A stretch of DNA of 64,000 nt from Escherichia phage NRG-P0074. Under the pieces are notes generated by a model. That model made no database searches. It was given only the letters and a program-made list of their open reading frames with translations, and had not been told where the DNA came from. The stretch lies in sequence record PQ480333.1; one strand, written 5' to 3'. The position numbers were made by a program, and so were the translations under genes. This document shows, in pieces, positions 9,997-23,380 of this stretch (position 1 is its first letter; every line of letters starts with the position of its first letter).

Positions 9997-10211
9997 TGGC
10001 TTCTACTATTACTGGGTTATTGGACTTCCAAGAAAAGGTCAACAAAATTTGTAGTGAATACTTAAAGTATCTTGAAGAAGACCTTGAAGATTGTAAGGAA
10101 GAAGGCGAAGAAGACTATGCTGACCAGCGTCGCCGCCAAATCGAAGAGATGAGGCATTTCGCCAATATGGTATCTAAAGAATCTTGGGCTTTAACTCCGT
10201 TTTATCAATAA
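9996..10211 (+). CDS. hypothetical acidic protein
   Basis: 71 aa coupled ORF. Confidence 0.45.
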   Translation: MASTITGLLDFQEKVNKICSEYLKYLEEDLEDCKEEGEEDYADQRRRQIEEMRHFANMVSKESWALTPFYQ

Positions 10212-10215
10212 AGTA

Positions 10216-10265
10216 GTTTACTTCTCCTCTAGTTGTGTTACTATAGACCTGTCAACTAGAGGAGA
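10216..10265 (+). promoter_or_regulatory. early promoter inside perfect 14-bp inverted repeat TTCTCCTCTAGTTG/CAACTAGAGGAGAA; right arm holds the regB RBS
   Basis: GTTTAC 10216-10221; -10-like TACTATAG in the 16-nt loop; arms 10222-10235 and 10252-10265. Confidence 0.55.
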
Positions 10266-10272
10266 AATCAAA

Positions 10273-10731
10273 ATGACTATCAATTCGGAAGTTTTTATCC
10301 GCCGTAATAAACTCCGTCGAATCTTTGAAACGGAGTTCCGCAAAATAAATGCCAGTATAAAAGACGCTGCAAAGTCTCTTGGACTACCAGGCTTTCATAT
10401 CAAGTATTCTCAACATCTCTTAGATCGTGCTATCCAGAGAGAAATAGATGAGAATTACGTTTTTGAATTATTTCGTAAAGTAAAAAATCATGTTAAAGAA
10501 GTTGCAGAATTTTTATCAATGCCGGCACGTCCAGATGTTGATGAAGATTTTGTCGAAGGTGTCGAATATCGCCCAGGACGTTTAGAAATAACTGATGGAA
10601 ATCTTTGGTTAGGACTTACAGTTTGTCGCGAAAATCCAGCATTCAAAATGAAGACTCTTCAATGCAGAATGGCTATTATTAACAGTAAACGACTACCAGG
10701 AAAAGCTTCTAAAGCAGTGATTAAAATCTAG
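10273..10731 (+). CDS. regB: site-specific endoribonuclease RegB
   Basis: MTINSEVFIRRNKLRR...LKYSQHLLDRAIQREIDE...RLPGKASKAVIK matches T4 RegB as I recall it. Confidence 0.93.
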   Translation: MTINSEVFIRRNKLRRIFETEFRKINASIKDAAKSLGLPGFHIKYSQHLLDRAIQREIDENYVFELFRKVKNHVKEVAEFLSMPARPDVDEDFVEGVEYRPGRLEITDGNLWLGLTVCRENPAFKMKTLQCRMAIINSKRLPGKASKAVIKI

Positions 10732-10739
10732 AGGTAAAC

Positions 10740-11282
10740 ATGAGAAAAGCACTACTCGCTGGTCTATTTGCTCTTTCATTATCAGCACATAGCTCCGAGC
10801 ATACTTTTAGTAATGTCCAACTCGATAACTTGAATTATGCTTATCAGTTTGGGGAACAGTTTTCTAAGGACGGAAAATTTAAAACGCATGAAAATATGCA
10901 TAAGAAAGGACTTGGATACATAATGGCCGCAATACTATGGCAGGAATCATCTGCCGGTATTAATCTTAAAGATAAGAAAGGTCACCATGCGTATGGAATG
11001 TTCCAAAATTATCTACCAACAATGAGGGCAAGAATTAACCAGCTTGGTTATAATATGACTGATGCCCAAATTAAGAAAATGCTATCTAAGCGGTCTAATT
11101 CAACCAGATGGGCTTATATCGAATTTTCTTATTGGTTAAATATACATAACGGGGATATAAGAAAAGCTATATCCTCATATAATGCGGGATGGAAGACAAG
11201 TGCTGGAAGTAAATATGCTTCTGAAGTCCTAGAAAAGGCTAATTACCTTAAATCAAATAAACTACTGGAAATAAAAGAATGA
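10740..11282 (+). CDS. secreted soluble lytic transglycosylase (SLT-domain) protein
   Basis: Signal peptide MRKALLAGLFALSLSA; SLT motifs WQESS, GMFQ, SYNAGW. Confidence 0.6.
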   Translation: MRKALLAGLFALSLSAHSSEHTFSNVQLDNLNYAYQFGEQFSKDGKFKTHENMHKKGLGYIMAAILWQESSAGINLKDKKGHHAYGMFQNYLPTMRARINQLGYNMTDAQIKKMLSKRSNSTRWAYIEFSYWLNIHNGDIRKAISSYNAGWKTSAGSKYASEVLEKANYLKSNKLLEIKE

Positions 11283-13442: not shown

Positions 13443-13509
13443 GGCATCTATCAGTTTACTTCTCCTCAGGTTGTGTTATAGTAAACCTTACTTACTAGAG
13501 GAGAACGTT

Positions 13510-15185: not shown

Positions 15186-15964
15186 ATTATATCAAATGTT
15201 ATGATGCAATAATTCAACGAGGAAAACTTAGAGGCAGTGATAAGTCTGAGTTGAATTATTATACTGAATCCCATCACATAATCCCTTCATGTATTGGAGG
15301 GAGTGATGACCCGAGTAATAAAGTTTTATTGACTGCCAGGGAACATTTTATCGCTCATTGGTTATTATCAAAAATTCACCCAAACTCTGAAGGATTGATT
15401 TACGCTTACTGGGCGTTCTATAATTTAGGCGAAGATGCTTTAGGACGAAATCTTAAATTAACCTCAAGAGGCTATAAAGACGTAAGGGAAAAGTTTTCAG
15501 AAATTCACTCTAATAGAATGAAAGATATATGGGAATCACAAGAATATCGTGATAAGCGTTCAGCGACCATGAGCCTCCCTGAGATAAAGGCTAAAATGTC
15601 AGATTCTCAAATAGAGGCACAGAATAGACCTGAAGTTAAAGCAAAAATATCTACTGCTATCAAAGAGGCCTTTAAGAGAGATGATGTTAAAGAACGGCAT
15701 TCAAGAGCTGTTAAAAAGGCCCTAGATAATCCAGAAACTAAAAAGAGACAGTCTGAAGCGTCTAAAGCTAGACAACGAACTGGTAAACACTGGGAAGATT
15801 ATGATATGCTTTACGAACTTTGGATTAAATTGAATCGACCTAAGCGTGGGGCTTTCGGAACCTATATTAGTAAAATGGGTTATCCTAAATCAAATTACCA
15901 ACGCTTAATATTACAGTTCATTGAAGATTATGAAAGGAAAGTGAATAATGAAAACGATTGTTAA
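15182..15964 (+). CDS. HNH homing endonuclease (Mob family), free-standing mobile gene
   Basis: HNH motif ESHHIIPSCIGGSDDPSNKVLLTAREHFIAH; position equals T4 mobD between rI and nrdC.x. Confidence 0.8.
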   Translation: MNYIKCYDAIIQRGKLRGSDKSELNYYTESHHIIPSCIGGSDDPSNKVLLTAREHFIAHWLLSKIHPNSEGLIYAYWAFYNLGEDALGRNLKLTSRGYKDVREKFSEIHSNRMKDIWESQEYRDKRSATMSLPEIKAKMSDSQIEAQNRPEVKAKISTAIKEAFKRDDVKERHSRAVKKALDNPETKKRQSEASKARQRTGKHWEDYDMLYELWIKLNRPKRGAFGTYISKMGYPKSNYQRLILQFIEDYERKVNNENDC

Positions 15965-16934
15965 GGCTTACTTTGGTAGCCACCTTTATGGAACGTCTAC
16001 TCCTGAATCTGACGTCGATTTTAAAGAAATTTATGTCCCTCATGCTCGTGATATTTTGACCGGTAACGTTAAAGAACATATGAGCAAGAACACGAATAAC
16101 ACATCTTCTAAGAACACAAAAGACGACGTGGACCATGAGTTATATAGTCTCAAATATTTCTTTAAACTAGCTGCAGATGGTGAAACTGTCGCATTAGATA
16201 TGCTTCACACTCCACCAAGTCTAGTAGTTAAATCTGATTTGCCTGATGTATGGAAGTATATTCAAGATAACAGGTCTCGTTTCTATACCACTAACATGAA
16301 ATCTTATTTAGGGTATGTCCGTAAGCAAGCTTCTAAATACGGTGTCAAGGGTTCTCGACTGGCTGTTCTTCGTCAAGCCCTTAAACGTTCTAATGAATGG
16401 GGACAATACTTTGATAATGGTGCAGTAATTCGTTTATCACATATGAAGAATGTTCTGCCTGTAGGTGAATTTGCTTCATGGGTTGAAACCGAAAACGAGA
16501 AAACAGGTAAGCAAACATTCTATAATCTGTTAGACCGTAAATTCCAAGACACGTTAACCAATAAAGAGTTCAATGCCGTCCTGGTTAAACTTGAAGAGAA
16601 CTATGGTGAACGTGCTCGTAAGGCAGAAGCCAACGAAGGTATTGACTGGAAAGCATTGAGTCATGCATGTCGTGGTGGACTTCAACTATTGGAAATTTAC
16701 AAAACCGGCGACCTGGTTTACCCGCTTCAGGATGCTCCATTTATTCTCGATGTTAAGCTTGGTAAACATACGTTTAAAACCGTACAGGAATTCCTAGAAG
16801 ATATCGTTGACCAAGTTGAACATGCAGCAGAACAAGCTGCTAAGAACGGTATGCAACAAAAAGTAGATATGAGTTTCTGGGATGACTTCCTTGAACAAGT
16901 CTACTTAGAAAACCACAATTCGTACTATAAATGA
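15948..16934 (+). CDS. predicted nucleotidyltransferase (pol-beta superfamily)
   Basis: Classic GS-x10-DVD motif (AYFGSHLYGTSTPESDVDF); 328 aa. Confidence 0.6.
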   Translation: MKTIVKAYFGSHLYGTSTPESDVDFKEIYVPHARDILTGNVKEHMSKNTNNTSSKNTKDDVDHELYSLKYFFKLAADGETVALDMLHTPPSLVVKSDLPDVWKYIQDNRSRFYTTNMKSYLGYVRKQASKYGVKGSRLAVLRQALKRSNEWGQYFDNGAVIRLSHMKNVLPVGEFASWVETENEKTGKQTFYNLLDRKFQDTLTNKEFNAVLVKLEENYGERARKAEANEGIDWKALSHACRGGLQLLEIYKTGDLVYPLQDAPFILDVKLGKHTFKTVQEFLEDIVDQVEHAAEQAAKNGMQQKVDMSFWDDFLEQVYLENHNSYYK

Positions 16935-16955: not shown

Positions 16956-16982
16956 GGGGGTCAAAATATTTTTAAAAAGTAG

Positions 16983-17018
16983 TGTACATGCTTTTAGGAT
17001 ATGTTATTATAGACCTAT
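16983..17018 (+). promoter_or_regulatory. early promoter (GTGTAC -35 variant, TATTATAGACCTATC -10 module)
   Basis: Conserved TGTTATTATAGACCTATC element shared with 17262, 18739, 53667. Confidence 0.5.
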
Positions 17019-17040
17019 CAAAACAAGAGGAGAAAACAAA

Positions 17041-17259: not shown

Positions 17260-17261
17260 TT

Positions 17262-17300
17262 GTTTACTTTTGCTTTAAACATGTTATTATAGACCTATCG
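17262..17300 (+). promoter_or_regulatory. early promoter
   Basis: GTTTAC 17262-17267; TGTTATTATAGACCTATC 17282-17299. Confidence 0.5.
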
Positions 17301-17329
17301 AAACGAAATGAGTAAATTTGGAGAATAAA

Positions 17330-18448: not shown

Positions 18449-18736
18449 ATGGATTTTATGCAAAAAATTAAAGCCGCAGTCGAACTGTATGCTCATCGTA
18501 TGGTTAGTTCTACGATGCAATATAGCGAGGAGGTTCGCCAGGACTCTTCCTTGAAAGGAAAAACTAAAGCCTTAATTACCTTAGACCGTCTACAAAAGAA
18601 TGCCCTAGAGTTGTTCCAGTACGACAAGGATGCATATAAGAAAGAACAGGAAGAGAAACTTAAATCTGAAAAATTACAAAAAATACCGAAGTCTGTTTGG
18701 TTCAGTGGAAAAAATACCGAAAAAAGTTTCTTTTAG
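18449..18736 (+). CDS. hypothetical protein
   Basis: 95 aa; RBS AAGAGGA. Confidence 0.5.
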   Translation: MDFMQKIKAAVELYAHRMVSSTMQYSEEVRQDSSLKGKTKALITLDRLQKNALELFQYDKDAYKKEQEEKLKSEKLQKIPKSVWFSGKNTEKSFF

Positions 18737-18738
18737 TT

Positions 18739-18777
18739 GTTTACACAGGTCTATGGACATGTTACTATAGACCTATC
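18739..18777 (+). promoter_or_regulatory. early promoter with AGGTCTAT/ATAGACCT inverted repeat
   Basis: GTTTAC 18739-18744; -10-like TACTATAG. Confidence 0.5.
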
Positions 18778-18795
18778 AACTACTAGAGGTAAAAC

Positions 18796-19320
18796 ATGAA
18801 CGCTAAAGATATTTTCAACCTGGTAAATTACAATGACGGTAAATTCAAATCTGAAGCACAAAGCAAGTTCTTTAATGAAGTAGCATGCGGTAACGAGATT
18901 ACCGTTTCTGGAGGAGAGATTTACAAAAGCCGTTGGAACTGGATTGTTATCATCGATTCAGTCGGGATTTTGGAAGTCTATAAAAACACTAACAAAAAAC
19001 GTACTCTTCACTGGAGTCGTGCTACAAACGCAGAGTATCAGGCAAAACGTAAAGCACGTAACATGCCTACTGAGTCTGATATCCAAAACATTAAATCAGA
19101 TATCGAATACTACAACAATCTGATTGCAGAACAACAAGCAGTTATTGACAAGTTCGACGAAATCAAAGCTTGTCGTGAGATTCCTGATTTTATGAAGGAA
19201 TCGGTAAACGAACAATATGCCCTCACTTCAGGTCGTATTAAAACTTATACGGAACAACGAGCAGAACGCCAAGCACTTCTTCGGAAATTTGAAGAACGTT
19301 TAAAGACGGTTCACGCATAA
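18796..19320 (+). CDS. hypothetical protein
   Basis: 174 aa ORF. Confidence 0.5.
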   Translation: MNAKDIFNLVNYNDGKFKSEAQSKFFNEVACGNEITVSGGEIYKSRWNWIVIIDSVGILEVYKNTNKKRTLHWSRATNAEYQAKRKARNMPTESDIQNIKSDIEYYNNLIAEQQAVIDKFDEIKACREIPDFMKESVNEQYALTSGRIKTYTEQRAERQALLRKFEERLKTVHA

Positions 19321-19382
19321 ACGCTTTACCCAAGGACGGGTTATAATGGTTTTGAGTTCCAATTCAATCTGAGGAAATAGTT

Positions 19383-20378
19383 ATGAGCATTACATCTGAT
19401 GCGGTAAAACATGAAATTAACGGTTTATGTGCTTCACAGATTAAAGTGTGGTTTAAAGACCATAATGATCGCAGAGCACTTAATTATGAACAAATTGCTA
19501 TCCAAGTTCATCAATTACTGGTTAGTAAATTTGATTTTCATATGCCGTCTGAAATCTATACTAATCTACCGCGAGCGCTTATTAAAGCATGTAAAGGTTA
19601 CGGAAAATCAATGGCCGATGGAATCTTCAGCGCGCTGAATAAACTTAACGTTCTGTCGATGATTAACTCTAACAATATCCTGCGTAATTTAGGACGTACT
19701 GATTTGTTCGGTCGTGAACAGGGTAAAATGCCTTTGAAATGGATTGTTGCTCATCTTAACGAGAACCAAACACGTTTTCTGGCCGTATCAGCACGTTTAC
19801 AAATGGGCTTAGATCGTCAGATGAACTTTAAAACTCATCCACGTTATTCAGGTTCAACAGACTTTTATAAATGTGAGCTTCAAAAGGTCAGTGGCAAAAC
19901 CGTCTTAGTAGTTCGTGTAACGTTTGAAGGACGACGTCAAGGATATTTTAACCTAATCGGCTCTGGTCTTAAACATTGTGGATTTATCGACGAAGTTGAT
20001 ATCAAGCGAGACGGCACTGGATATCGTATTGGATATGTTTGTACTCTTAAAGAAGAGATTTTAGGACCAGCTCCAGGACTAAAAGACGTTAGATATAAAG
20101 ACGAGCTCGTTGAAGAAATAAAAGAAGTTGAATATGATATCAACCAAGAAGATGCTCTTAAAGACCTTATTGATGAACTGAATCAAGACGTTATTCCGGT
20201 TCAGAAATTTGAATCAAAACATGCTGAGCAAATCAAATACTTTGAAGCTTTGATTAACGAACTTAATGTAACTATTCAACAGACTGACGATGAAATCTCA
20301 CGATTAGCAGGCTTAAACGGTAAAAATAAAACAGAACGAGCTAATCTTATTCAAGTAGTAAAACTTCTTAAGGAATGA
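19383..20378 (+). CDS. hypothetical protein with C-terminal coiled coil
   Basis: 331 aa; own promoter-like TTATAAT upstream. Confidence 0.55.
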   Translation: MSITSDAVKHEINGLCASQIKVWFKDHNDRRALNYEQIAIQVHQLLVSKFDFHMPSEIYTNLPRALIKACKGYGKSMADGIFSALNKLNVLSMINSNNILRNLGRTDLFGREQGKMPLKWIVAHLNENQTRFLAVSARLQMGLDRQMNFKTHPRYSGSTDFYKCELQKVSGKTVLVVRVTFEGRRQGYFNLIGSGLKHCGFIDEVDIKRDGTGYRIGYVCTLKEEILGPAPGLKDVRYKDELVEEIKEVEYDINQEDALKDLIDELNQDVIPVQKFESKHAEQIKYFEALINELNVTIQQTDDEISRLAGLNGKNKTERANLIQVVKLLKE

Positions 20379-20408
20379 TGTACAACCAAGGATGGTTGGA
20401 GTATAATA
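20377..20408 (+). promoter_or_regulatory. early promoter module ACAACCAAGGATGGTTGGAGTATAAT (copy 1)
   Basis: CAACCA/TGGTTG inverted repeat plus TATAAT 20403-20408; near-identical copy at 21394-21428. Confidence 0.5.
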
Positions 20409-20433
20409 AATTTTTCAACATGAGGAATATAAA

Positions 20434-21393
20434 ATGGCTTTTATTACACGTAGAGAACTTATCAAAGAATTTACCTCGAACGCATATACTCCAGGACCTA
20501 ATCCTATCCGTATGCCTGTAAAGACTCCTGAAGAGATTGAGGAAATCTGTTCATATTATGGGATTACTTCTCGTAAGTTTACTCAATTTGAATGCGTTAC
20601 TAACACACCCGTTAAAGAGTTCATTAAAAATGGTGAGTTCAGCCGTTTATTAGCCAAACAGAAACTTCGTAATTTTTGTATTGGTGGTGAAGGACAATAT
20701 TTCGCTAAGCAGTTCCGGAATAACCTTAACAATCTGATGGCCATTGCTTCTCGTATTCGTCCTCAAGCAATTAACATGAAACATTTGAAATATACTTACG
20801 ATAAGTTAGAAATCATGGTTATCAGTGAGAACGAGTTCACTCTTACGTATAAACCTAAGAATGATAACGTTGCTCGTGTATTCCACCAAGCGTTGGAAGT
20901 TTTAGGTGATAATATCCACCAGATTAAAGCAATTTATTCTCGTGAGCTTAATATTATCGACCCTATCAAGAATAAGGGCCATATCGCTATCCAGGCTCGT
21001 GTATCTATTGGTAAAAAGGTTCCTGCGCCATGGTGGCACAAAGACTCTGAATACTATCAAAATCTTAAAAAGGAAAATGCATTGTTTGAAGCATCGCTTA
21101 CTGGGACCCCAATTGAACAGGCCGAAGTCCTAAGTGCTTATTCTACTTCGGGTAAATCAATGTTTAAAGGTTTGCCAAATGTGTGCAAACTGTCTGCAGT
21201 AAAACTAAATGTTTCTAATGACCTTCTTCCGGCCGAAGATTACCGTTACAATCAAATCAAGGCCACTATGGACCAACTGTCTGTTGAACTTGACAAAGCA
21301 CAAGCTAAGCTTCGTGATGCTCAAAGTGTTGTAACGAATCTCCAGTTGCAGTATTCTAAACTTTTTAACGCAATGAATGCGTTAAAATCATAA
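20434..21393 (+). CDS. hypothetical protein with C-terminal coiled coil
   Basis: 319 aa. Confidence 0.55.
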   Translation: MAFITRRELIKEFTSNAYTPGPNPIRMPVKTPEEIEEICSYYGITSRKFTQFECVTNTPVKEFIKNGEFSRLLAKQKLRNFCIGGEGQYFAKQFRNNLNNLMAIASRIRPQAINMKHLKYTYDKLEIMVISENEFTLTYKPKNDNVARVFHQALEVLGDNIHQIKAIYSRELNIIDPIKNKGHIAIQARVSIGKKVPAPWWHKDSEYYQNLKKENALFEASLTGTPIEQAEVLSAYSTSGKSMFKGLPNVCKLSAVKLNVSNDLLPAEDYRYNQIKATMDQLSVELDKAQAKLRDAQSVVTNLQLQYSKLFNAMNALKS

Positions 21394-21428
21394 AATAGTT
21401 TACAACCAAGGATGGTTGGAGTATAATG
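21388..21428 (+). promoter_or_regulatory. early promoter module (copy 2)
   Basis: GTTTAC 21388-21393, CAACCAAGGATGGTTGG, TATAAT 21423-21428. Confidence 0.55.
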
Positions 21429-21455
21429 AATCTATCTTAACGAGAGGAAAATATT

Positions 21456-22406
21456 ATGACACGTTCACATTACATTGAATACTTTGCAGGTCTTATCGCT
21501 AACGTTCATGCCCAACGTGCTTCTGGTGCACTAGGATTTGATGTTCCACACCGAGATGTAGTAAGTGGTATTCTTCGCGATTTTGGTACATACATAGGCC
21601 AAGAAAATCATATCTGTAAAGATACTCAAAATGCGTATTCTCATTCGTTAGGGACGTTGCTTCAATGGTTCAAACGTTCTCGTTTATTATCTTCTACTGT
21701 AGCTCGCGATAACATTAAAAACTTTATGAAGCCGAGCTTTATTAAATCTGTGACATCTAAAACCGATTTGGTTGAATTCACTATTGTTAATGATGTTAAA
21801 AAGACTCATTTGGCTGATTGGTTAACTACCATTCCTGAAACTAAATTTGCTGATAAATTTGCTTGTGAATTCAATAACCAAGTGAATATGCTTTTTAAAC
21901 ATTCTCGTAAATTATTCACAGGCGGCGATGATCGTACAAATACAGTTCATGCTAAAGATTGGGTTACTGCAGTGTTCAAACCAACCGGTAATGGTACCGC
22001 ATCATTATCAATTGATATTCAGGTTCCTTATTATTACTCACGTAATCTCGGCACCATGAAAGCTGAAGAAATTAAGAAGCACAATAAAACCATTCGTTCG
22101 CTGTCTTATAAACTTCGCATGATGTTAAGAATCATGGACGTGGTAGAAATGTATGATGAAACCGAAGATAATGGTTCAATGTTATACAGTTCTCGCATTC
22201 AAATTAAGTTGAAGAACCCTAACGAGTATAAGCCTAAGCCTATTAAAGAGCCTAAAGCAGAAAAAGTTGATAACTTAAGAGAAGAACGCGAATATCTCAA
22301 ATCTCGTCTGAAAGAAGTCGAAGCCCAGATTGCAGAACAAACTAAATCGTTAAAAGCTCTGAATGCGAAAGCGGATGGTTTACGAAATGCCATTGAGGTG
22401 TTATAA
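21456..22406 (+). CDS. hypothetical protein with C-terminal coiled coil
   Basis: 316 aa. Confidence 0.55.
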   Translation: MTRSHYIEYFAGLIANVHAQRASGALGFDVPHRDVVSGILRDFGTYIGQENHICKDTQNAYSHSLGTLLQWFKRSRLLSSTVARDNIKNFMKPSFIKSVTSKTDLVEFTIVNDVKKTHLADWLTTIPETKFADKFACEFNNQVNMLFKHSRKLFTGGDDRTNTVHAKDWVTAVFKPTGNGTASLSIDIQVPYYYSRNLGTMKAEEIKKHNKTIRSLSYKLRMMLRIMDVVEMYDETEDNGSMLYSSRIQIKLKNPNEYKPKPIKEPKAEKVDNLREEREYLKSRLKEVEAQIAEQTKSLKALNAKADGLRNAIEVL

Positions 22407-22711
22407 TGAAACTACGCCTTTTAGAGGATATTGATATGAGCACTAATCACCGCTTGGTTAAGTTTATTGACAATAGTTCAAAGATTGAATTTGTTCAGCG
22501 AGATAAAATCCACGGTGAAGAAGAGTTCGTTCCTCCGGCATGGAACGAAATAATGAAAATGGTTGAACGACGTGAAAATGCTGCCAAATCGGCAGCAAAA
22601 CATCCATGCCCGGAATGTGGAACTATCCAAGTCCAACTGGTTAACTGGACCACTGATAACTTGAAATTGAAATGCCGTAAATGCTTCCACAAATTTGAGA
22701 GAACATTATAA
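22406..22711 (+). CDS. hypothetical zinc-ribbon protein
   Basis: CPECG...CRKC four-Cys motif; ATGA-coupled. Confidence 0.5.
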   Translation: MKLRLLEDIDMSTNHRLVKFIDNSSKIEFVQRDKIHGEEEFVPPAWNEIMKMVERRENAAKSAAKHPCPECGTIQVQLVNWTTDNLKLKCRKCFHKFERTL

Positions 22712-23124
22712 TGAGATATAGCCTTCGTTGTTTTATTGCAGCTTTAGTTTTTGCCATCATTCCATTCATTTGGAACAGCCAGAATACTTACATGGAAACT
22801 AAAGTAATTCCTGTGGAGGTAGTGGAATTAATTTCAGGTCAATCTACAGGAAAATATTCTAAATTAGAATTTATTGCAGTCTATAAAGATGAGCAAGGAC
22901 GAGTTTTTGACAGGCATGTATCACCTTCGTTTTATACGCTTCTGAATAAAGGTGATACGATAGCTATAGAAATTCGTGAGATGGATATCAAACAAACTAC
23001 TAAAGATAACCTGATTTGGTTCTTTGGTACAGTGTTGTTGGTTTCTATCTGTATCACAGGTTTTATTACATGTATTGTATTTGGCATTGCATATTTAATC
23101 GATGAAAGGAAAAATAATGTTTAA
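22711..23124 (+). CDS. hypothetical membrane protein
   Basis: N- and C-terminal hydrophobic helices. Confidence 0.5.
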   Translation: MRYSLRCFIAALVFAIIPFIWNSQNTYMETKVIPVEVVELISGQSTGKYSKLEFIAVYKDEQGRVFDRHVSPSFYTLLNKGDTIAIEIREMDIKQTTKDNLIWFFGTVLLVSICITGFITCIVFGIAYLIDERKNNV

Positions 23125-23380
23125 AGTGTACGGGTATGACTCTACTATTCATAAATGCATTTATTGTGATAATGCGAAACGATTGCTGACTGTTAAGAAA
23201 CAGCCGTTCGAATTCATTAATGTTATGCCAGAAAAAGGTGTTTTTGATGATGAGAAAATTGCTGAGCTTCTGGCTAAGCTTGGACGTGAATCACATGTTG
23301 GATTGACGATGCCTCAGGTGTTTGCTCCTGATGGAACTTCGATCGGTGGCTTTGACCAACTGCGAGAATATTTTAAATGA
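23117..23380 (+). CDS. nrdC: thioredoxin/glutaredoxin NrdC
   Basis: MFKVYGYDSTIHKCIYCDNAKRLL...GGFDQLREYFK matches T4 NrdC as I recall it. Confidence 0.9.
   Translation: MFKVYGYDSTIHKCIYCDNAKRLLTVKKQPFEFINVMPEKGVFDDEKIAELLAKLGRESHVGLTMPQVFAPDGTSIGGFDQLREYFK

Follow-up and report, generated by a model that had tools for sequence, protein, structure and literature searches.

Three tandem genes of the nrdC.6-nrdC.5-nrdC.3 type in a Mosigvirus genome: diverged paralogues, a candidate counter-defence role and a promoter-bounded cassette

We describe here three consecutive genes, g1, g2 and g3, of Escherichia phage NRG-P0074 (sequence record PQ480333.1), located in a stretch of 64,000 nucleotides that is called the window below and to which all positions refer. 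By profile matches and gene order their products are recognisable as conserved Tevenvirinae proteins, homologues of T4 nrdC.6, nrdC.5 and nrdC.3, respectively. The array is an ancient conserved block of diverged paralogues and not a recent assembly, and its middle gene lies on a cassette whose gain or loss appears to run through the promoter modules on either side. The explanation that we favour, and that we consider reasonably probable as a whole, is that this locus corresponds, in Mosigvirus, to the nrdC.6-nrdC.5-nrdC.3 part of the hyperplastic nrdC-mobD region of T4; in analogy to T4 NrdC.5, the array would most likely represent a set of diversified counter-defence proteins. New here are the link of these families to a putative superfamily, an apparently novel fold, a covarying hairpin embedded in promoters and a clean natural polymorphism of g2. 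A first-pass annotation of the same DNA had listed three consecutive open reading frames of 331, 319 and 316 amino acids, with coordinates and lengths exactly as given below. It had taken them for ORFans without recognisable motifs, a view that is refuted by the DUF7235 match (E=3.4e-123), by PHROG matches with E<1e-98 for all three proteins and by the presence of the families in hundreds of T4-like phages.

19383..20378, + strand: g1, 331 amino acids; T4 NrdC.6 homologue, phrog_2257; variable linker 221-260; C-terminal heptad helix
20434..21393, + strand: g2, 319 amino acids; DUF7235 (PF23882), phrog_2351, T4 NrdC.5 family; residues 221-260 hypervariable; helix 266-318
21456..22406, + strand: g3, 316 amino acids; T4 NrdC.3 orthologue and NrdC.4 paralogue, phrog_1435; homologues with PF26897

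Results

The window is a Mosigvirus genome (RB69 group, T4-like), and its region 19000-22800, in which every gene lies on the + strand, shares 96-98% DNA identity with phages such as moskry, ECO111 5-P and NBG1. The g1 gene lies downstream of the nrdC.8 homologue, in a position orthologous to that of T4 nrdC.6. Its product is 30% identical to T4 NrdC.6 (E=5e-20), both proteins belong to phrog_2257 (g1 over its full length, E=8.9e-127), and close homologues of g1 carry PF26899. The g2 protein covers the complete PF23882 profile (positions 1-307 of 307) with 411 bits at a cut-off of 30, and T4 NrdC.5 reaches 420 bits on the same model (E about 1e-123). Membership in phrog_2351 is common to both proteins, and g2 sits between the nrdC.6 and nrdC.3/4 homologues as nrdC.5 does in T4. 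Full-length Pfam and PHROG membership, the prereplicative class and a C-terminal motif of the form ...KL.NA(L/M)NAL are thus shared with the T4 nrdC.5 family, whereas g2 has a promoter of its own and T4 nrdC.5 follows nrdC.6 without one. The g3 gene is located directly upstream of the nrdC.2 homologue, as is T4 nrdC.3; the protein is 56% identical to T4 NrdC.3 and matches phrog_1435 over residues 1-316 (E=1.1e-105), and PF26897 is carried by its homologues. In T4, NrdC.3/NrdC.4 and NrdC.6 are listed as 'conserved hypothetical' early proteins and have the same PHROG membership as g3 and g1. Genes of the g1 type are present in 741 phage records, those of the g2 type in 132 and those of the g3 type in 653. 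NCBIfam and PADLOC returned nothing meaningful for the three proteins, and single-protein and profile sequence searches of the PDB gave no match below E=0.3.

A difference between g1 and its T4 counterpart concerns the C-terminal helix, which is complete in g1 and lost by a frameshift in the T4 reference annotation. The reference nrdC.6 (NC_000866, 275 amino acids annotated) is apparently frameshifted near its 3' end (locus-extract positions 9997-10894, minus strand): the sequence of the C-terminal helix, '...ISIQQYDDEIFRLSGLSSKAKSEREKLIKIVDLLKS*', is found in another frame and stops just 5' of the nrdC.5 ribosome-binding site, and other T4-type phages have an intact nrdC.6 reading frame of 295 amino acids.

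Pairwise BLASTP among g1, g2 and g3 gave zero signal. We built family alignments from homologue searches and from the nrdC regions of eight further T4-like genera. Comparison of the g2 and g3 families with hhalign resulted in a probability of 89% (E=2.3e-6, 149 columns), which rose to 96.2% (E=2e-9; g2 4-317 against g3 1-316) once members from Serratia X20 and of the Dhakavirus-like type had been included and lay at 72-96% without bridging sequences. The match is located in the globular core (g2 60-175 against g3 62-238), outside the coiled coil. Against the merged g2 and g3 profile, g1 reached 88.6% in local mode (E=2.6e-6; g1 71-149 against g3 58-164) and 94.9% in global mode, and all 12 negative controls, consisting of reversed profiles and the NrdC.10 and NrdC.11 families, stayed at or below 0.9% probability. 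The g1 family is narrow, with 6 matches in an exhaustive search of 1.84 billion representative proteins and only 4 close relatives in a word-indexed homologue search with g1 alone; at least seven related loci are present in IMG/VR. Two collinear motifs run through the three proteins, the one reading FSALNKLNVLSMINSNNILRNL in g1, LQWFKRSRLLSSTVARDNIKNF in g3 and VKEFIKNGEFSRLLAKQKLRNF in g2, the other LNENQTRFLAVSARL in g1, FRNNLNNLMAIASRI in g2 and FNNQVNMLFKHSRKL in g3, and a C-terminal L-x-x-[AVS]-[ILMV]-x-x-L-K closes every subfamily. In addition, PHROG 26858 connects NrdC.4 with the C-termini of both NrdC.5 and g2. From these comparisons we regard homology of g2 and g3 as highly likely; g1 is very probably homologous to them as well, and we hold this part with less confidence. 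The NrdC.3/4, NrdC.5 and NrdC.6 families would accordingly appear as one superfamily.

Sequence variation is unevenly distributed. In Mosigvirus g2 it falls nearly entirely into residues 221-260 (window 21094-21213), with 25-31% identity there and 93-99% elsewhere. The same residue range of g1 (window 20043-20162) shows 54-61% identity versus more than 84% elsewhere, and variation of g3 is placed at the N-terminus. The 221-260 segment is the linker that precedes the C-terminal helix and is probably disordered.

A usable AlphaFold model was obtained for g3 from 72 family sequences (predicted local distance difference test, pLDDT, 78.8; predicted template modelling score, pTM, 0.70). In the model, residues 3-88 form an N-terminal helical bundle and residues 93-252 an alpha/beta core, followed by a disordered linker (259-274) and a long helix at the C-terminus (275-315, pLDDT 83-89). 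The core begins with three strands and continues through helix 128-154, a first hairpin and helix 203-226 to a second hairpin. Foldseek comparison with viral models recovered only uncharacterised proteins of about 300-370 amino acids from T4-like phages of Yersinia, Acinetobacter, Erwinia, Serratia and Klebsiella, including two consecutive accessions in Acj61, and against the PDB no significant match was found (best E=0.03, probability 0.14). The predicted g3 fold is hence apparently new. The shared fold for which the first-pass annotation had suggested a check by structure prediction finds support at the profile level (g2 and g3 72-96%, g1 with the merged profile 89%), while only the g3 model is confident; three unrelated folds with known functions, the outcome it had named as contrary, did not occur. 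Its observation of coiled-coil-like segments at the C-termini is borne out by the long helices g2 266-318 (pLDDT 80-95) and g3 275-315 and by heptad analysis, in which a C-terminal window scores best in each protein (a/d occupancy 0.67 for g1, 0.83 for g2 and 0.79 for g3). Within the g3 core, residues 128-252 (window 21837-22211) form an alpha-beta-beta-alpha-beta-beta unit with a conserved G-x-D-x-R right behind the first helix. Among the Foldseek matches of g3 below significance, LAGLIDADG endonucleases turn up repeatedly, which is a lead only. A LAGLIDADG-like core was rejected as unsupported: I-OnuI and I-DmoI gave Foldseek E>=0.1 and template modelling (TM) scores <=0.27, and neither PDB-profile nor Pfam searches returned a match.

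Each of the three genes is preceded by a predicted promoter with a hairpin in its spacer:

19319..19347, + strand: g1 promoter, predicted MotA-box middle promoter aaaCGCTTTA (GCTTTA 19323-19328), 13-bp spacer, TATAAT 19342-19347
19328-19341: hairpin in the g1 promoter spacer, ACCC-AAGGAC-GGGT
20379..20407, + strand: g2 promoter, sigma70-type TGTACA-17-TATAAT, 10/12; left repeat copy 20381-20407
20383-20398: hairpin in the g2 promoter spacer, CAACCA-AGGA-TGGTTG
21399..21427, + strand: g3 promoter, sigma70-type TTTACA-17-TATAAT, 11/12; right repeat copy 21401-21427
21403-21418: hairpin in the g3 promoter spacer, same hairpin as in the g2 promoter spacer

No other site within 9 kb matches sigma70 as well as the g2 and g3 promoters, and phage NBG1 has a promoter annotated at the site orthologous to the g3 promoter. 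Neither of the two contains the TGn element or the extended consensus that typical T4 early promoters have. MotA-type promoters were ruled out for these two genes, since GTTTA lies 19 bp from the -10 element and hence outside the 12+/-1 rule. For g1 the situation is different. The MotA box consensus is (a/t)(a/t)(a/t)TGCTTtA at 12+/-1 bp from the -10 element, and T4 PnrdC.7 is an experimentally mapped middle promoter with its start at 53325 (Hinton, 2010, Table 1; PMC2988021). The T4 counterpart of the g1 promoter, CGCTTTA-TACCAAGGATGG-TATAAT, is located upstream of nrdC.7-nrdC.6, and its -10 element sits 7 nt upstream of 53325. The g1 MotA box deviates from consensus by one mismatch (C for T), the same one as in PnrdC.7. 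Because the box stands at the required distance and the site is orthologous to the mapped PnrdC.7, we classify the g1 promoter as a middle and not an early promoter, which is predicted to depend on MotA/AsiA. It resembles PnrdC.7, and thereby sigma appropriation by MotA/AsiA, in the CGCTTTA box, the CCAAGGA(T/C)GG spacer and the TATAAT element, but differs in a spacer of 13 bp instead of 12 bp and in that it drives the nrdC.6 homologue directly, because nrdC.7 has moved elsewhere here. Thus, the earlier proposal of an own early promoter for each gene agrees with the sigma70-type sites of g2 (10/12) and g3 (11/12) and fails for g1. The typical T4 early promoter consensus (GTTTAC ... TGTTATTATAGACCTATCAA ... 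GGAG) is itself present in many copies, forming repeat families D1-D4 across the window, at 2335-2399, 10215-10266, 13453-13504, 16981-17032, 17261-17312, 18740-18790, 53666-53717 and others.

The spacer hairpin, with an invariant AGGA loop, is present in all modules of Mosigvirus, T4 and a Dhakavirus-like phage, and it occurs within spacers of sigma70-type as well as MotA-type promoters. Its stems differ in sequence yet remain complementary (AACCA/TGGTT, CCACA/TGTGG, AGCCA/TGGCT, TACCA/TGGTA, ATCCA/TGGAT and ACCC/GGGT). Among eight distinct modules 87.5% of cells are paired, compensatory changes are seen in four of six pairs, and none of 500 shuffles reached the observed covariation. With free energies of -5.6 to -10.9 kcal/mol (z -0.1 to -2.9) the hairpin is of modest stability, no Rfam family matched over 18500-23200 at E<=1, and no terminator-like site was scored at the spacer hairpins.

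The g2 and g3 promoters lie in an exact repeat of 27 bp, TACAACCAAGGATGGTTGGAGTATAAT, at 20381-20407 and 21401-21427, for which zero copies are expected by chance. The similarity extends to 43 nt at 86% identity, and the copies are exactly 1020 bp apart and bracket g2. The first-pass annotation had noted this repeat as a duplicated 26-bp module in front of two genes. Phage F27 has g3 directly behind g1, and the 57-nt region between the two is chimeric. As far as the end of the module it agrees with the g1|g2 junction, and beyond it with the g2|g3 junction, placing the crossover inside the shared 27-bp block. A junction probe of 451 bp is contiguous in 21 records (F2, p000v, AV109-118, JM10/17, FL18/31 and ESCO47 among them) and its match is split in g2-carrying phages. 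Records that carry g2 number 132, and 21 have the g1|g3 junction with a single chimeric module. In the ESCO47 module the left arm of the stem is of one type and the right arm of another, a combination suggestive of a crossover within the hairpin loop. In phage moha (locus extract 1262-1563) an extra open reading frame for a hydrophobic membrane protein of 66 amino acids stands between g1 and g2, followed by duplicated last codons of g2 and a promoter module. These junctions support the view that the 1020-bp g2 cassette is gained or lost as a unit via its flanking promoter modules; the event may have been either a deletion or an insertion. Promoter-mediated recombination, which had been proposed for the building of the whole array, therefore holds for loss or gain of g2 with its chimeric junction (21 records), while the array as such consists of ancient paralogues.

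A comparable element is known from T4-type phages. Promoter-early stem-loop (PeSL) elements are a repeated promoter plus stem-loop flanking accessory genes; their copies recombine in RB49/phi1 and other T4-like phages, so that a cassette is removed or inserted and a chimeric motif is left, and middle-promoter stem-loop variants (PmSL) have been described as well (Arbiol et al., 2010; PMC2839356; Comeau et al., 2014; PMC4122927). The module described here is similar in being a repeated sigma70-like promoter (10/12 and 11/12, 17-bp spacer) in a hyperplastic region that varies between genera, and in cassette loss or gain with a chimeric motif (F27, F2, ESCO47 and 18 more records). It differs in that the stem-loop is located in the promoter spacer, between the -35 element or MotA box and the -10 element, whereas the stem-loop of PeSL lies upstream and is a terminator; moreover, the module is without a T-run and its AGGA loop is invariant.

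Discussion

The sole experimental datum for the whole family is the action of T4 nrdC.5 against Dsr1. A T4 clone deleted for the region fails to plate on ECOR17 or on K-12 with ECOR17 dsr1, plasmid-expressed T4 nrdC.5 restores plating of the deletion clone on dsr1 cells, and T4 clones with the region deleted grow on K-12 (Srikant, Guegler and Laub, 2022, eLife; PMC9391042). Homology to NrdC.5 makes g2 the foremost candidate of this phage for an inhibitor of the Dsr1 type, an assignment that we make with moderate confidence. Its paralogues g1 and g3, which belong to one dispensable and variable block with it, could plausibly inhibit other defences or other alleles, although this is weakly indicated. 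Copy number and order of nrdC.3-6-type genes differ between genera, g2 is missing from some otherwise near-identical phages, and phage pEK20 is 99.1% identical to the window in the neighbouring AAA protein and only 88.7% in g2. Such a pattern of genus variation, g2 absence and g2 divergence fits accessory genes of a host-range type. A functional analogy may be drawn to DSAD1, which is said, in work by Garb et al. from 2022, to be a phage inhibitor of the DSR2 sirtuin defence. Here, too, a small phage protein would block a SIR2 NADase defence by binding, but neither a sequence nor a fold relationship between DSAD1 and the NrdC.5 family was found.

We propose that the paralogues share a layout of N-terminal helical domain, alpha/beta core, variable linker and a C-terminal heptad helix of 40-50 residues. 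They would be expressed before replication, g1 from its middle promoter and also by transcription reading through from the early promoter (18740-18768), and g2 and g3 each from their own sigma70-type promoter. In analogy to NrdC.5 and the SIR2/NADase Dsr1, the proteins would most probably act as stoichiometric inhibitors of host immune proteins, presumably by direct binding, with each paralogue adapted to a target or allele of its own and oligomerisation possibly mediated by the C-terminal helix. The near-identical modules beside g2 would offer short homology patches to the phage recombination system, through which the g2 cassette is lost or gained.

Several observations weigh against parts of this explanation. 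In the literature we found no functional data for nrdC.3, nrdC.4 and nrdC.6, and these genes go unmentioned in the accessory-gene screens of Silas et al. The g2 protein shares only 25-30% identity with T4 NrdC.5 and is without two T4-type insertions of about 45 residues in total, and its target specificity may therefore differ or be lost. The shared fold is supported by profiles, and for g1 by the merged profile alone; direct hhalign comparisons of g1 with g2 and with g3 reached just 8-27%. The AlphaFold prediction for g2 (71 sequences, pLDDT 41.8) failed in the body of the protein and is confident only in helix 266-318, and the heptad signal is statistically weak when compared with shuffles. 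Finally, relaxed constraint explains the variation of residues 221-260 equally well as an arms race.

One alternative is that the three proteins are unrelated and lineage-specific, having converged on a similar size and a C-terminal coiled coil in an array without common function. Silent pairwise BLASTP, three separate Pfam/PHROG families and the low direct hhalign values of g1 agree with convergence, and coiled coils readily give rise to spurious similarity; but the g2-g3 match (89-96%, E down to 2e-9) and the match of g1 to the merged profile (89%, g1 71-149) lie in the core rather than in the coiled coil, the reversed and unrelated controls remain below 1%, and motifs and order of secondary structure elements are collinear. 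We therefore consider convergence very improbable. Unlikely, to a lesser degree, is a role of the paralogues as host-takeover or regulatory factors that act on host metabolism, nucleoid or transcription, in which case the anti-Dsr1 effect of NrdC.5 would be indirect. Dispensability argues against such a role, as g2 is absent in 21 near-identical phages and the T4 deletion clones grow on K-12, and so does the variation in copy number and order between genera, a pattern of accessory host-range genes. Prereplicative expression and the position among genes of nucleotide metabolism and takeover would suit it, as would the absence of similarity to known anti-defence proteins or PADLOC models. The tie of the family to defence comes from a single genetic experiment without mechanism, yet in this experiment expression of nrdC.5 alone sufficed against dsr1.

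A separate question is whether the modules flanking g2 take part in its loss or gain. They could be nothing more than conserved promoters, with the g2 polymorphism caused by illegitimate deletion or by long flanking homology and the hairpin being incidental. T4-type recombination can use any homology, and large microhomology deletions are known from this region, namely the P0080 fusion described below and those of Srikant et al. (2022; PMC9391042). The junction without g2, however, contains exactly one module with flanks from different copies and leaves the coding sequence intact on both sides, the repeats are the sole extended identity around g2, and the ESCO47 module resembles a hybrid of two stem types. 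Likewise, the modest free energy of the hairpin (-5.6 to -10.9 kcal/mol) would be in line with an incidental structure, but its stem covaries, with compensatory changes in four of six pairs and none of 500 shuffles reaching this level. An origin of the polymorphism independent of the modules is thus highly doubtful in our view, and recombination between the promoter modules remains the explanation that we prefer.

With the relationships proposed here, three 'hypothetical proteins', often mis-annotated as thioredoxins, would become paralogous to the one inhibitor of the Dsr1 sirtuin defence that has been characterised. Should NrdC.3, NrdC.4 and NrdC.6 disarm immunity as well, this conserved block, which hundreds of therapeutic T4-like phages carry, would aid the prediction of host range, and the natural presence or absence of g2 offers ready isogenic comparisons. 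The covarying promoter hairpin and the exact cassette junction make a clean case of accessory-gene shuffling in T4-type phages. One may tentatively go further and imagine that NrdC.3, NrdC.4, NrdC.5 and NrdC.6 form one superfamily of new fold that serves as a diversifying toolkit of defence inhibitors, with every paralogue directed at another immune system and Dsr1 as the first target known. The hairpin-bearing promoter module would then be a dedicated element for recombination and expression, by which co-infecting phages exchange counter-defence cassettes in the manner of an integron, a possibility that we regard as rather speculative.

Gene neighbourhood and further observations

The genes around the array match the T4 nrdC-mobD segment as follows:

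15948-16931: nrdC.11, match to the T4 nrdC-mobD segment
17318-18310: nrdC.10, AAA-like protein, 77% identity to T4
18449-18736: nrdC.9, match to the T4 nrdC-mobD segment
18796-19320, + strand: nrdC.8, 73% identity to T4
22406-22711, + strand: nrdC.2, directly 3' of g3
22711-23124: nrdC.7 homologue, predicted membrane protein, T4 match
23102-23380: nrdC thioredoxin, 89% identity to T4, followed by endonuclease VII and nrdD

Synteny with T4 extends to the flanking nrdC.10, nrdC.9, nrdC.8, nrdC.2, nrdC.7 and nrdC genes. The nrdC.7 homologue is relocated, being found 3' of nrdC.2 here and between nrdC.8 and nrdC.6 in T4, and nrdC.4 and nrdC.1 are missing from the window relative to T4. Many GenBank records label every nrdC.N gene as 'thioredoxin', apparently a propagated naming error, as likeness to thioredoxin or glutaredoxin is seen only in nrdC itself (window 23102-23380). 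The NrdC.2 homologue (101 amino acids, window 22406-22711) has a zinc-ribbon-like C-terminus of the type CxxC...CxxC, with weak matches to Pfam zinc ribbons and to a PHROG labelled 'NrdC-like thioredoxin'. In P0080 (299 amino acids, 167-kb contig) a natural in-frame fusion joins NrdC.5 146-272 to NrdC.3 134-308; it removes the end of nrdC.5, the entire nrdC.4 and the start of nrdC.3, and its junction is a short KVN/NVN microhomology.

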